Counted from the stretch's first letter, positions 7,321-64,000 are shown. The stretch: 64,000 nt of DNA from a virus (IMGVR_UViG_3300029705_000018); one strand, 5' to 3'. Made by a program: numbers and translations. Notes: generated by a model from the sequence alone, not told the origin.

Positions 7321-8280
7321 TTACTTTATACTATATCCAAATTCTTTTGCTTTGAAATAATCCTGCCAGTAGTCTTCTCGTTCATCCAAGAGCGCACGAG
7401 TGCATTCTTCAATGACTTCAAAGGTGAAATTTTCTGGACCTGCCGCAATCATTGCAGGATAAAGTTTATTGCGGGTTGGGGCATCTGCGCCGACGCCACG
7501 CTTGATATGTTGTTTCCAACGGTCTGCTAAGTTAGCAGCTTGACCAACATAACATTTTCCAGTTTCAATTTCAGTTATTTTATAAATGCCGGTATGGATT
7601 CCTCCGCCAATTACTCTGCCAATCAAATCAGTGGTTGGTTTTTCGTAATAACATTTCCAAATAACTTTATTCAAAGGCTCTTTATCTCTCAATAAATGTT
7701 CAATTGACCGCAAGGCTTTGATTTCCTCAACGTCAATATCATTTAGTTGAATACGATAAAAATCCTTTGCTGTTTTCATTTCTTCTGCTCTTTTGGCGGC
7801 CAGGACGGCGGCATCATTAATCGCACGCATAGCACTAACGTTATCAGCCATTTGGCGATATTGTTCCATAAAGTGTGCGACAGTTTCTTCATATTGTCTT
7901 TGAAATGCTTCAACATTTTCTTGATGCTCCTACGCTGCGCGAACTGCATCTTTCGCGAAGCAATCTTTCATAGCATCCATCTTAGACTTATATAGAGCAT
8001 TTGCGGCCTCAGTAGCTTGTTCCTCAGCAACTTTTATTGTTGAACGCAAATTTTCAAGACGGTCATTTTCACGACCTCTTTCAAGAACAAGTTTTGTGTG
8101 CTCTTGGTCCAAAATGGAATTTGATTCAATGAGTTGTTTATTTTCTAACTCAAGTTTTCTATTCTATTCAATAATTGAACTATTGATTTGAACAGTCTAT
8201 CGTAATTTTGGTTTTAGAGTTAGATAAACAACTAATCCACTTATAATTGCCGCAAGTAGAAAAATAATTATATAACTCAT
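7321..8280 (-). CDS. Membrane-anchored coiled-coil protein with a C-terminal GIY-YIG nuclease domain. It has three in-frame TAG codons read as Gln.
   Basis: Track ORFs 7321..7869 and 7930..8112 and an upstream ATG at 8278-8280 all share one frame. TAG codons at about 8196-8198, 8166-8168 and 7930-7932 are the only stops. The N-terminus MSYIIIFLLAAIISGLVVYL is a transmembrane segment. The C-terminus GIYKITEIETGKCYVGQAANLADRWKQHIKRG is GIY-YIG. Confidence 0.55.
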
Positions 8281-8335
8281 ATCAAAAAAGAAGGCGTAAG
8301 ATATATTTCAATCTTACGCCTGGTATATGTCAAAA

Positions 8336-8611
8336 TTACTCAGCAGCTTCAACAACGGCATCGGGATCGAAAGCCATACCTGCGTCAGTCAGCTTCAGGA
8401 ACTTGACAGGCTTGTGGGAGCCATCTTCCAGCTCAACTTCTGCGGGAATACGAACACCGTAGCCCTTTCTCTGAATAGCACTGGTGAAGATACCATCAAC
8501 CTGACGCTTTTCCAGACCCAAAGCAGCAGCAACGTCAGCAGCAGTTACGTCAGCGCCATTAATCTCCTTCATGTAATTTAGAACCTTCTTAGAATTATCG
8601 CTCATAGCCAT
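8336..8611 (-). CDS. Hypothetical small protein
   Basis: 91 aa with a terminator hairpin at 8292..8325. A TTGACA-N17-TATAAT promoter lies at about 8650..8705. Confidence 0.35.
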   Translation of the reverse strand: MAMSDNSKKVLNYMKEINGADVTAADVAAALGLEKRQVDGIFTSAIQRKGYGVRIPAEVELEDGSHKPVKFLKLTDAGMAFDPDAVVEAAE

Positions 8612-8715
8612 AGTAAATAATCTCCTTTAATAAATAATATTTTTTAGTTAATTTTGTAACCTGATTGGTTATGTAAATATTATATCAAAAAATTTTTGAA
8701 ATGTCAAGAAATTTT

Positions 8716-8949
8716 TTAATTTTTTTCAAGCAATTCCATTACAAGTTCGTCAATAGCGACCATATCTTCCAGACTGTGTACGCTACTTGAGATTCTCATA
8801 ATTTCTTCTTCTGCCTGCTTGACAGCCTTAGGATCTTCATTCTTCATAATGATCCTCTCGCACTTAGCGATCTTGACCGCCAAGTTTTTCATTTCTTTTT
8901 TCTTCATTTGAAAATTTTCATCCTTAATCTTTACGATTTTATTATACAA
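8716..8949 (-). CDS. Hypothetical coiled-coil protein
   Basis: 77 aa with a promoter of the TTGACA variant at about 8945..8975. Confidence 0.3.
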   Translation of the reverse strand: MYNKIVKIKDENFQMKKKEMKNLAVKIAKCERIIMKNEDPKAVKQAEEEIMRISSSVHSLEDMVAIDELVMELLEKN

Positions 8950-8969
8950 AAAATTTTTCGTTTTGTCAA

Positions 8970-61577: not shown

Positions 61578-62640
61578 ATCTTTGTATCTCCTTTCCTTGA
61601 ATAACGCATTTTTTATATATCTCCATAGAACGATAAAATGTTCTAAAATATTTATTAATAAAATTAGACATTGTTGTCTAATCTATTATCCCTTTATAAG
61701 AGAAAAAAGCACAAAATTCGTGATAAGTTGGTAAAAATATTTCATCTCGATAATAAGAATTATATAACATTTTTATTATAAATTTTCTCACCTTTTTATA
61801 AGTTCGTTTACGCAAAATAATTCTATTATGAAAATGTCTATATCCTACAAAATCTATTCCCCTAATATCTACAGGAAAAATCTAATAATTATCTTTTATT
61901 TCTAATTTTAATTCTTCTTGAAGATATTTTTTTATTTGATAAAAATATTTCCATAACTATTTTTTATTATTTCCTAAAATTACTATATCATCCATATAAC
62001 GAATAATATATTTAATTTTCAATTCTTCTTTACACCAATGATCAAAAAATGATAAATAATAATTTGATAAATATTGTGATAGATAAGAACCAATAGGTAA
62101 ACCATTATTACAACTTTCAATAATTTTATCTAAAAGCAATAAAGTCTATTTATCTTTAATTTTTTTACGAATTAGTTTTTGTAAAATAGTTTGATTAATA
62201 TTTGGATAAAATTTTTTTATATCAATTTTCAAGCAATACTAAGTATTTTTAACATCTTTTAGATATTTTTTAGTAAGATTAGTTGCTCGTGTAATTCCGG
62301 CATTTTTTATAGAAGCACAACTATGATAACAAAAATGTTTTACTAAAGTTGGTTCTAACTATAACATAATGGCCCATTGAATAATTCTATCTGGATAATA
62401 AGGAAGTTTCATAATTTCTCGCTCTTTTCCACTATCCTAAATTATTGAATGCTTATAGAGTGAAACCTAATATTCATTATTTAATAATATTTGTTGAATC
62501 TATTTTAGATTATTATCTAAATCTTTTTCAACTTTTTTTACTGAACGATAATGAGATTTATCCTATTTAGCCATTTTGTGTGCTAACCGCAAATTATCCA
62601 TATTACATATTTTATCAAAAATATTATTTAGACGTTTCAT
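61495..62640 (-). CDS. DGR reverse transcriptase with about 10 in-frame TAG codons read as Gln. The 3' end is approximate.
   Basis: My single-frame minus-strand translation from ATG 62638-62640 runs MKRLNNIFDKICNMDNLRLAHKMAK(TAG)DKSHYRSV...DSGKEREIMKLPYYPDRIIQWAIM...LKIDIKKFYPNINQTILQ...GLPIGSYLSQYLSNYYLSFFDHW...IRYMDDIVILG...IFPVDIRGIDFVGY. These are RT domains 1 to 7 including YMDD. Every stop in about 350 codons is TAG, with no TAA or TGA. The track sees only the 60-aa fragment 61957..62139. Confidence 0.7.
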
Positions 62641-62689
62641 ATTAATTCCTTCTATAATTATTGTTATTTTTATAAGGTTTTAGTAAAAA

Positions 62690-62860
62690 ATATTTTTACT
62701 AAAACCTTATTTTATTTTGACTGAGAGAACGTTCATTATAATAAAATAATTACTAATACCCATTATCAGAAGAATTTTACCAAGAGGTAAGGTTTATGTA
62801 TTTAGAAAAATATTATATATAAAACTCTCAAAGAGAGTTATAAATAAAATAACAAAAGAG
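62690..62860 (-). repeat. Conserved spacer element, copy 2, lying between TR2 and the RT gene
   Basis: It is about 85 percent identical to 59655..59825. Confidence 0.6.
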
Positions 62861-63000
62861 TGCGTGCCGATATTCGAATCCGTATTGTCGGGTGTTTCAT
62901 TCACATTGAAGATGAAAGGTCCAGTATTCAGACTATTATTCCAATAACCGCTGAAATTCGCTACGTTACTGGGATTGACATTCGAATTATCGGAAGTATA
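62861..63000 (-). repeat. DGR template repeat TR2, non-coding
   Basis: It aligns with 63040..63180. Mismatches are plus-strand T in TR2 against C, G or A in VR2. TR2 differs substantially from TR1. Confidence 0.7.
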
Positions 63001-63028
63001 TTTTTCCATACAATTAACCTATATTATT

Positions 63029-64000
63029 TTATAGTTTTTGGACGCGCGCGCCGATATTCGAAGCCGCATCGTCGGGCGTACCATCCACACCGAAGAGGAA
63101 AGGCCCAGCAACCAGACCATCATCCCAACAACCGCCGAAACGCGCCACGCGACCGGGATAGACATCCGAAGCATCGGAAAAATAAGTTGTCTCGCTACCA
63201 GCACCGATCATTTTCTTTAACGCAAAACCGCCTTCAGAAGTGGCACAAGGATAAATTAAATAATCCTCTAAATAACCATTTTCGGCAACTTGTTCTGTAT
63301 CAACTTCCGCAGTAATTTCGTATCCTTCACCATAGTCGTTGAAATTATTAGTTGTAATTTTATAATTGCAATTATCATCAGAGACAATGCCATCAACCCA
63401 ATTCCAAATATTACCCCAGAAATTTTCAATACCAGCAAATTTCATACCTTGAGTCATATCTGTGTTATCTCCGTCATAGGGAATACCCCAGTCCAAACTG
63501 CAAGTATTCATAATGCCAGAAGCTATTGCTTCCTCTCCATTTACATTACCACATCCAAGAGAAGATTGGCCATTAATTGATTTATACTTCATAATAAACA
63601 TAGCTTGTAAATAAATTAATTGAAACCAAGCAAATTGTTCATAAGTATCTCCATTGTTGTGTGCGGCCGCACGTGCTTCACCGATTGTTATATTACAAGC
63701 AGGAGTTTTACCACTCAAACTACGTAATTTATTATTTTCATCAATATACCCATTATAAGCACCGATATAAAATGTATCTAATGAATTATTATTAAAAGTA
63801 TGAGCGTAATATTCAAAATTATCAGGATCTTCAATATTGGTAAAACTAATTCTTATTTTCATATCAATCTCATTTCCTGTAATTCTTAATCCTCTTCTTG
63901 GAAAAGCAATCATTACATCTCCTGCACTTCCACTTTCAATATCTACTGGATTACCATTAATATCTTCAGCGTAATTATTAGGATTTAATTTTACAACTTC
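63029..64000 (-). CDS. DGR target protein 2 (paralogue of target 1), with VR2 at its 3' end (about 63040..63180). The 5' end is outside the window.
   Basis: Track ORF 63029..63913. The frame continues upstream to the window edge, and 63901..64000 is identical to 60851..60950 of target 1. The C-terminus is GRVARFGGCWDDG...GARVQKL. Confidence 0.65.
   Translation of the reverse strand, partial: EVVKLNPNNYAEDINGNPVDIESGSAGDVMIAFPRRGLRITGNEIDMKIRISFTNIEDPDNFEYYAHTFNNNSLDTFYIGAYNGYIDENNKLRSLSGKTPACNITIGEARAAAHNNGDTYEQFAWFQLIYLQAMFIMKYKSINGQSSLGCGNVNGEEAIASGIMNTCSLDWGIPYDGDNTDMTQGMKFAGIENFWGNIWNWVDGIVSDDNCNYKITTNNFNDYGEGYEITAEVDTEQVAENGYLEDYLIYPCATSEGGFALKKMIGAGSETTYFSDASDVYPGRVARFGGCWDDGLVAGPFLFGVDGTPDDAASNIGARVQKL

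Follow-up and report, generated by a model that had tools for sequence, protein, structure and literature searches.

The window and its phage

The DNA considered here is a 64,000-nucleotide stretch of a viral genome (IMGVR_UViG_3300029705_000018), referred to as the window, in which the triplet TAG is found in frame within genes and, by comparison with homologues, is read as a sense codon corresponding to glutamine (genetic code 15). The window is contained in the public contig ena:ERZ27248436:k141_1895590 (183,267 bp), where it corresponds to the reverse complement of approximately positions 101,686-165,685. The phage is probably SPbeta-like, about 180 kb in size, and derived from gut Clostridia, with a Clostridia host being probable. 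Every gene of the window is carried on the minus strand. The encoded proteins include a DnaB-type helicase, homologues of YorF and YorH, ThyA, DHFR, an NAD-dependent ligase, gyrase A and B, a nicotinamide adenine dinucleotide (NAD) salvage cluster, a sigma factor, RNA-repair-type enzymes, an endolysin, and a diversity-generating retroelement (DGR). A YorL-type PolIII-alpha (39% identity to that of SPbeta), NrdD/NrdG and dUTPase adjoin the window on the outside. When a 7.8-kb segment of the window was used in a distant blastn search of GenBank phages, no close relative emerged and the sole match was a ligase fragment. In IMG/VR there is a large family of relatives of 100-200 kb, more than 270 related contigs were found there, and some relatives have been binned with metagenome-assembled genomes (MAGs) of Acutalibacteraceae and Agathobacter, which, for MAG-binned phage contigs, is weak evidence of the host.

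Genes that contain TAG in frame

Genes were read with TAG as a sense codon and with TAA and TGA as stops, which gave 78 curated genes. Eight of them contain 25 in-frame TAG codons and no in-frame TAA or TGA in 3,433 codons. The 78 genes end in TAA (60) or TGA (18) and none ends in TAG; even if TAG made up 10% of stops, the chance of observing no TAG stop would be ≤3e-4. A preliminary description of the window had put the number of affected genes at nine or more, where eight are counted. The seven that it named fuse on re-reading in the manner of table 15 with no residual in-frame TAA or TGA, and an eighth, at 20455-20709, was missing from its list. Its TAG counts for the listed genes are all reproduced apart from the DGR reverse transcriptase (RT), which has 11 and not about 10.

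The eight genes, all on the minus strand, encode proteins of diverse type. A membrane/coiled-coil protein with a GIY-YIG endonuclease domain (7321-8280, 319 aa) has three TAG codons ending at 8199, 8166 and 7932. The endolysin (17500-19170, 556 aa) features Phage_lysozyme2, Peptidase_M15, PG_binding and SH3 domains and has two TAG codons, which end at 18861 and 18387 and correspond to residues 104 and 262; with TAG as Gln, the segment over a TAG site reads SIGDLEMQLEFLIK. An 84-aa membrane protein (20455-20709) has one TAG, ending at 20520, and the IGF motif and acidic tail past this codon are kept in six relatives. The endonuclease paralogue at 47485-48213 (242 aa) has a TTG start preceded by a strong Shine-Dalgarno sequence and two TAG codons ending at 48171 and 47595. 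The largest of the genes (54159-58340, 1393 aa) has three TAG codons ending at 58229, 57869 and 54950. It was earlier labelled a tail fibre, a label that is not confirmed; the protein features Flg_new repeats, appears to be a surface protein, and has non-structural neighbours. This gene is strain-variable and accessory, being missing in strain L006 (98.5% identity over the DGR overlap), where a 291-aa gene directly precedes the vault-like gene. A 61-aa gene (59422-59607) has one TAG at codon 14 that is kept in three related loci. The remaining two genes belong to the DGR: target gene 1 (60021-61214, 397 aa), with two TAG codons ending at 60593 and 60563, and the RT (61495-62640, 381 aa, 23% GC), with 11 TAG, 10 CAA and no CAG codons. 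The RT segment over a TAG site, with TAG as Gln, reads WAIMLQLEPTLVK.

The DGR spans 60021-64000 and contains target gene 2, a template-repeat-like stretch at about 62705-62960, the RT, a 36-aa open reading frame (ORF), and target gene 1. Target gene 2 (63029-64000, minus strand) is TAG-free and runs off the window. Upstream, the sister contigs L006 and L020 carry a third DGR target (409 aa) and an Mtd_N protein. Several public contigs break within the DGR, probably due to its repeats.

The absence of TAA and TGA is restricted to the coding frame, as all three stop triplets are abundant in the off-frames of the TAG genes. The counts of TAA/TGA/TAG in the RT are 0/0/11 in frame 0, 17/5/12 in frame +1 and 34/10/8 in frame +2. 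In the 1393-aa gene there are no TAA and no TGA codons in frame 0, and there are 37-77 TAA triplets in the off-frames. Additionally, Pfam domains are continuous over the TAG codons: Phage_lysozyme2 covers residues 3-165 and Peptidase_M15 residues 199-296 of the endolysin, and RVT_1 covers residues 70-250 of the RT. The HFTHVDTR, LIRIPY and TTG-initiated MGRK segments that the preliminary description had recovered by reading through TAG are indeed present downstream or upstream of the TAG codons. The base 3' of TAG is no different from that 3' of CAA and CAG (p = 0.29), which speaks against read-through that depends on context. A further 16 genes, with 46 in-frame TAG codons and no in-frame TAA or TGA, lie in flanking loci of this phage species, giving a total for the window and flanks of 71 TAG codons in 24 genes, with a quoted maximum of 11 per gene.

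Identity of the amino acid at TAG

The correspondence of TAG to Gln was addressed by comparison with homologues. In an alignment of the RT with 113 homologues (~50% identity), residue 94, encoded by TAG, is Gln in 113 of 113 sequences; Gln is also found at residue 253 in 112 and at residue 47 in 62. The remaining RT TAG sites are at positions that are variable and polar in the homologues. The RT family has four invariant Gln columns, two of which are TAG in the window phage, and the fused RT has full-length homologues. The neighbouring radical-SAM maturase has a TAG on the invariant column Q32 (45 homologues), and TAG 104 of the endolysin faces Gln in each of the four relatives whose endolysin extends over this site. 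Exchanges between TAG and Gln codons are also seen among strains. At GIY-YIG codon 39 the window has TAG and three strains have CAA, at codon 247 the window has CAA and one strain has TAG, and in the 84-aa membrane protein two relatives have TAG where the window has a CAA or CAG Gln codon. A paralogue comparison gives the same result, as both TAG codons of target gene 1 face a Gln codon in target gene 2, which fixes them as Gln. This comparison had been put forward earlier with CAA and CAG at the two sites; the codon is CAA at both.

Taken as sequence evidence, these comparisons demonstrate that TAG is read as sense and corresponds to Gln. The reassignment proposed in the preliminary description is upheld by the invariant Gln columns, the TAG/CAA exchanges, the continuity of Pfam domains, and the Gln-like tRNA with a CUA anticodon, tRNA(CUA), found in strain-level relatives.

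Suppressor tRNA in strain-level relatives

No tRNA was found in the window by ARAGORN or Rfam, in agreement with what had been noted by eye. The sister contig L020, which is 98.5% identical to window positions 59874-64000, features a tRNA with anticodon CUA at 3548-3622. This position is ~13.7 kb past the right edge of the window and lies within an array of ~38 tRNAs that includes tRNA-Gln(UUG) and tRNA-Gln(CUG). The tRNA(CUA) is a canonical cloverleaf, with GG in the D-loop and TTCGA in the T-loop. Whole-sequence identity to the other tRNAs of the phage gave no information on its isotype, in contrast to the acceptor end: of the 33 tRNAs of locus L032, only Gln-UUG, Gln-CUG and the CUA tRNA have U1 together with discriminator G73. 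A sigma-70-type promoter, similar to the 31-nt repeat described below, is located 150 nt upstream of tRNA(CUA).

The identical tRNA(CUA) sequence is present on contigs of 4 ENA samples, and its 3' 54 nt are matched exactly on 2 IMG/VR contigs. JGI sample 3300018430 contains one contig that is 99.993% identical to the window and another contig that carries tRNA(CUA). In more distant relatives the number of CUA tRNAs is one or two. Theta ribozymes next to suppressor tRNAs are the subject of a published study (PMC10879173); no Rfam match to theta or hepatitis delta virus-like ribozymes was found beside the suppressor tRNA at E ≤ 1.

Other RNA elements and RNA-related genes were noted in the same context. 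Between the promoter and the suppressor tRNA, at L020 3444-3511 (~13.8 kb past the right edge of the window), is a YrlA-like (Y-RNA-like) element in which the tRNA halves are permuted (T-arm, acceptor 3' strand, CCA, acceptor 5' strand, D-arm) and which scores 42 bits in Rfam, under the gathering threshold. A partial match to the OLE RNA model (436-595 of 616) scores 52.9 bits against a threshold of 50 at L020 5069-5158, just downstream of tRNA-Lys(UUU). The window also encodes a possible tRNA/RNA repair kit that consists of a Thg1-like 3'-5' polymerase (43643-44425), an RNase T (39461-40372), an RNA-ligase-like protein (PHA02142; 37710-39173), an HD_4 protein (36760-37416), and an AAA_33 kinase with a metallophosphatase (23382-24567). 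This kit is of interest given the ~38-tRNA array and the U1-U72 mismatch of the suppressor tRNA. In the NAD-salvage cluster, at 33791-34300, there is a free-standing YqeY-domain protein (PF09424), a relative of the GatB tail that binds tRNA(Gln), which might conceivably assist the formation of Gln-tRNA for the suppressor.

Distribution of TAG among genes

TAG use is partitioned among the genes. Seventy of the 78 window genes are TAG-free, and TAG accounts for 4.5% of Gln codons. The 25 TAG codons are confined to 8 genes, against 19.7 expected under random placement (P < 5e-5). The TAG genes are AT-rich, with 23-38% GC vs a median of 41% (p = 1.7e-4), and the CAG share of CAA + CAG is 17% in the TAG genes vs 68% elsewhere. 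The 70 TAG-free genes contain 304 CAG and no TAG codons. A C-to-T change at CAG would be synonymous under a constant code 15, and these counts therefore argue for selection against TAG in these genes.

The TAG-free core is exemplified by the genes for NAD-dependent ligase, gyrase A and B and RNase H (8970-16787, minus strand). The DnaB, ThyA, DHFR, sigma factor and NAD-salvage genes of the window are also TAG-free, as are those for PolIII-alpha, a RecJ-like protein, a helicase, NrdD/NrdG and dUTPase outside it. Automatic codon mapping onto relatives gave TAG codons in DHFR, Thg1 and other core genes, which on inspection proved to be artefacts of secondary BLAST alignments. On the window's contig the RecJ-like gene (L034 7271-8512) is called as 413 aa, and on a JGI sister contig (L035 6897-8513) the call reaches 538 aa and includes a DHH domain; the gap suggests a start-site or frameshift difference with no relation to TAG.

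Outside the window, TAG codons are concentrated in several places. The region upstream of the DGR is TAG-rich and includes the target of a ribosomally synthesized and post-translationally modified peptide (RiPP) cassette with 6 TAG codons and a small protein with 5, in addition to a peptidase and a PDDEXK nuclease. The RiPP-like cassette is located at L020 8003-11377 and consists of a radical-SAM 'CXXX-repeat' maturase and a 658-aa Cys-rich target, with TAG in both. A second GIY-YIG gene has 4 TAG codons. The convergent module downstream of dUTPase is also TAG-rich: a leucine-rich repeat protein has at least 13 TAG codons, and the tail-fibre-like proteins of relatives have 6-9.

A repeated 31-nt sequence, TTGATTTTTATAAAAAAATATGATATAATAT, is a sigma-70-type promoter with an extended -10 element and has 17 occurrences, all of them on the gene strand. 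On the minus strand, the 5' ends of the copies are at 59337, 54103, 51490, 48324, 46349, 41966, 40440, 36557, 35823, 32737, 28592, 27143, 25815, 24846 (copy 24816-24846), 16861, 5685 and 3264. Eight copies are perfect, and many have a terminator-like hairpin just before them. The copies probably define early transcription units. Sixteen of the 17 are directly upstream of TAG-free genes, and 7 of the 8 TAG genes lack a copy immediately upstream. Early-type promoters are also missing from the convergent TAG-rich module.

One gene appears to use TAG as a stop. The zinc-ribbon gene at 24530-24787 (minus strand, 85 aa) ends in TAG at 24530-24532 and has its own ribosome-binding site and a perfect promoter copy directly upstream. 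Read-through would add 31 non-homologous residues that overlap the P-loop of the kinase in another frame, and the homologues in four relatives (six loci) have TAA 3-6 codons past the window's TAG. TAG is apparently still a stop for at least this early-type gene. The earlier observation that no gene ends in TAG holds for the 78 curated genes, with this gene as a probable exception.

These data revise two further claims of the preliminary description. Recoding was said to extend across the window, and 70 of the 78 genes lack TAG altogether. It was also said not to look confined to late genes, which is not supported; the replication, nucleotide-metabolism and NAD genes are TAG-free and the early-type promoters precede TAG-free genes in all cases but one. 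TAG genes are physically interspersed among early-type genes, and this interspersion had been confused with expression class.

Proposed conditional recoding and alternative explanations

We consider it very likely that the phage uses code 15 conditionally, with a phage amber-suppressor tRNA, TAG-free early genes, and TAG genes that are expressed later. In the proposed mechanism, the tRNA-Gln-like phage tRNA(CUA), probably charged by the host glutamine pathway, would compete with release factor 1 (RF1), with the result that TAG would be translated as Gln. The genes that are needed first, for replication, nucleotide and NAD metabolism and the sigma factor, are TAG-free and would thus be readable by the standard code of the uninfected host. 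The suppressor tRNA gene would be expressed from the same kind of promoter as most early genes. The AT-rich TAG genes would be completed only after the suppressor has accumulated; these would be the endolysin, the small membrane protein, the homing-type endonucleases, the DGR RT and targets, the large surface protein, and the convergent late module. The feature is real, the earlier interpretation is essentially correct, and the mechanism is identified in sister genomes.

Several points weigh against conditional recoding in this form. The TAG gene at 47485-48213 is directly downstream of an early-type promoter, the sole TAG gene so placed, and the timing of the two classes is deduced from promoter sequence and gene class. 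The tRNA(CUA) is seen in strain-level relatives and is presumed to be present on the window's own contig; the array varies between strains. It has a U1-U72 mismatch, where the phage's own Gln tRNAs have U1-A72. Genes for release factors, glutaminyl-tRNA synthetase (GlnRS) or the amidotransferase GatCAB were not found among the Pfam tags of the called genes (~150 kb), and the charging enzyme would be that of the host pathway. Additionally, certain TAG sites face Lys or Glu in homologues, which is compatible with Gln and is no proof of it at those sites; Lys is faced by GIY-YIG codon 48, the first TAG of the endonuclease paralogue (GKLTV motif), and RT residue 26.

The alternatives concern whether TAG is translated at all and, if so, as what and by which tRNA. 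The TAG genes are AT-rich, strain-variable and accessory, and table-11 gene callers return them as fragments, which would fit pseudogenes or split genes that decay in the AT-rich accessory part of the genome and in which TAG is a true stop. This explanation is effectively refuted, as TAG alone interrupts these genes and never TAA or TGA, both of which are common off-frame; conserved domains and motifs continue past TAG codons that fall on invariant Gln columns, no curated gene ends in TAG, and a matching suppressor tRNA exists in relatives. Programmed, context-dependent read-through by near-cognate host tRNAs, with no dedicated suppressor, is scarcely tenable. Nothing specific was counted in its favour, the number of TAG codons (up to 11 per gene) and the lack of bias in the following base speak against it, and a tRNA(CUA) exists. 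Pyrrolysine or another non-Gln residue at TAG is suggested by the default ARAGORN label 'tRNA-Pyl' and by the few TAG codons that face Lys. This label reflects the anticodon only, the tRNA has a canonical cloverleaf with a Gln-type U1/G73 end, no pylS- or pylBCD-like Pfam match was found among the called genes (~150 kb), and the conserved columns are Gln and not Lys, which makes such a residue hardly plausible.

It could also be that the host itself reads TAG as Gln and that the phage merely matches it without any switch, which would account for the lack of release-factor and synthetase genes in the phage. Acutalibacteraceae and Agathobacter are standard-coded by general knowledge. One early-type gene of the window ends at TAG, and the phage, as represented by strain-level relatives, has its own CUA tRNA. 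Moreover, TAG is present in 10% of the window genes and in no replication gene, in contrast to phages that match a recoded host, which use the codon in ~90% of genes (Borges et al. preprint, 10.1101/2021.08.26.457843). A recoded host is very improbable, if slightly less so than the other alternatives.

Within conditional code 15, a more far-reaching possibility is that the two-state TAG, a stop for the early sigma-70-driven core and Gln for the other genes, 'code-locks' a mobile, AT-rich accessory pool. We put this forward tentatively and with some doubt. In this view TAG would be Gln for the homing endonucleases, for both the DGR and RiPP cassettes, for the lysis genes and for the late module. 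The DGR RT is the extreme case, with 11 of its 21 Gln codons being TAG and none CAG. If the idea is true, RT synthesis, and hence mutagenic retrohoming, would take place only after the suppressor tRNA has accumulated, and code-locked genes would be silent after transfer to a host or phage without the suppressor.

Comparison with known systems

TAG-to-Gln recoding is known from other gut phages, and the window is a well-documented new example and no new phenomenon. In the phages described by Borges et al. (10.1101/2021.08.26.457843), replication genes are in standard code and lysis, structural and homing-endonuclease genes are recoded. Metaproteomics has confirmed TAG-to-Gln translation in crAss-like phages (PMC9523058). 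The window phage shares with the code-15 gut phages (crAss-like, Lak and other Borges clades) the presence of TAG at Gln sites, its avoidance as a terminator, low GC, standard-coded replication genes, and recoded lysis, structural and homing-endonuclease genes; a phage tRNA(CUA), another feature of that group, is carried by its strain-level relatives. It differs in its SPbeta-like replication module, its size of ~180 kb, and its probable Clostridia host. The proportion of TAG genes is 26-71% genome-wide in those phages vs 10% in the window, which consists mostly of early-type genes, and no 'code-change module' of release-factor and synthetase genes was seen in ~150 kb of the window phage.

The gut Caudoviricetes phage phAss-1 (proposed Phassvirus), a further precedent in the literature, has an SPbeta-type PolIII-alpha, 28-36 tRNAs with 2-3 tRNA-Sup-CTA, no aminoacyl-tRNA synthetase of its own, and TAG in 28% of ORFs (PMC10607447). 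Its suppressor tRNA is 83% identical to the tRNA(CUA) of the sister strain over the 3' 47 nt. However, its PolIII-alpha has 37.7% amino-acid identity to that of the window phage, which is ~45 kb larger, and phAss-1 gave no match in the distant blastn search with the 7.8-kb segment. By these sequence measures the two would not belong to the same genus.

The window phage resembles SPbeta and its relatives in the YorL-type PolIII-alpha, YorF, YorH and the DnaB-type helicase, and differs from SPbeta in having ~38 tRNAs, a DGR and TAG recoding. To our knowledge, TAG has not been reported as a sense codon in SPbeta-like Bacillus phages. In E. coli supE (glnV), a tRNA-Gln body whose CUG anticodon has become CUA inserts Gln at UAG in competition with RF1. 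The tRNA(CUA) likewise features a tRNA-Gln-type body with a CUA anticodon; unlike supE, it is phage-borne, has the acceptor-end mismatch, and would serve dozens of designed TAG codons in place of rescuing nonsense mutations.

Other features of the window

Two further features of the window were noted. The segment 27389-35760 encodes NAMPT, NAD synthase, NADAR, an NMNAT-like protein, a phosphoribosyltransferase, a nicotinamidase-like isochorismatase and SIR2, a near-complete set for NAD+ salvage and turnover. The gene at 51528-54029 encodes an 833-aa protein with the shoulder domain of the major vault protein (PF11978). Huge phages of 462-735 kb are the only GenBank phages in which this vault-like protein is kept (39% identity), and it is widespread across the IMG/VR family of the window phage.

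Annotation and implications

Public annotation of this phage family is inconsistent with regard to TAG. The calls on the public ENA contig of the window are read through TAG and give the endolysin as 556 aa and the GIY-YIG protein as 319 aa; those on ENA sister contigs give the surface protein as 1393 aa and the RT as 381 aa. Table 11 was used for JGI contigs that are identical to the window and for another ENA contig; there the endolysin is split into four ORFs (103 + 150 + 49 + 202 aa), and the same calls give lengths of 145 aa for the endonuclease, 63 aa for the membrane protein and 85 aa for the zinc-ribbon protein. That table 11 fragments genes of this genome, as anticipated in the preliminary description, is thus borne out by the split endolysin. 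The inconsistent annotation of an abundant phage family hides the endolysin, the DGR RT and several nucleases.

The pattern of standard-coded early genes and recoded late genes matches the published model, and the phage thus fits the scheme of Borges et al. The early/late partition looks unusually clean, and this case is set apart by how cleanly TAG use is partitioned by promoter class and by the very heavy use of TAG in the DGR RT. Conditional TAG-to-Gln recoding, which we regard as very likely here, would be extended to a large SPbeta-like lineage of Clostridia phages. With a repeated early-type promoter that marks TAG-free genes and a suppressor tRNA, this lineage would be suited to testing the idea of a code switch as a timer.

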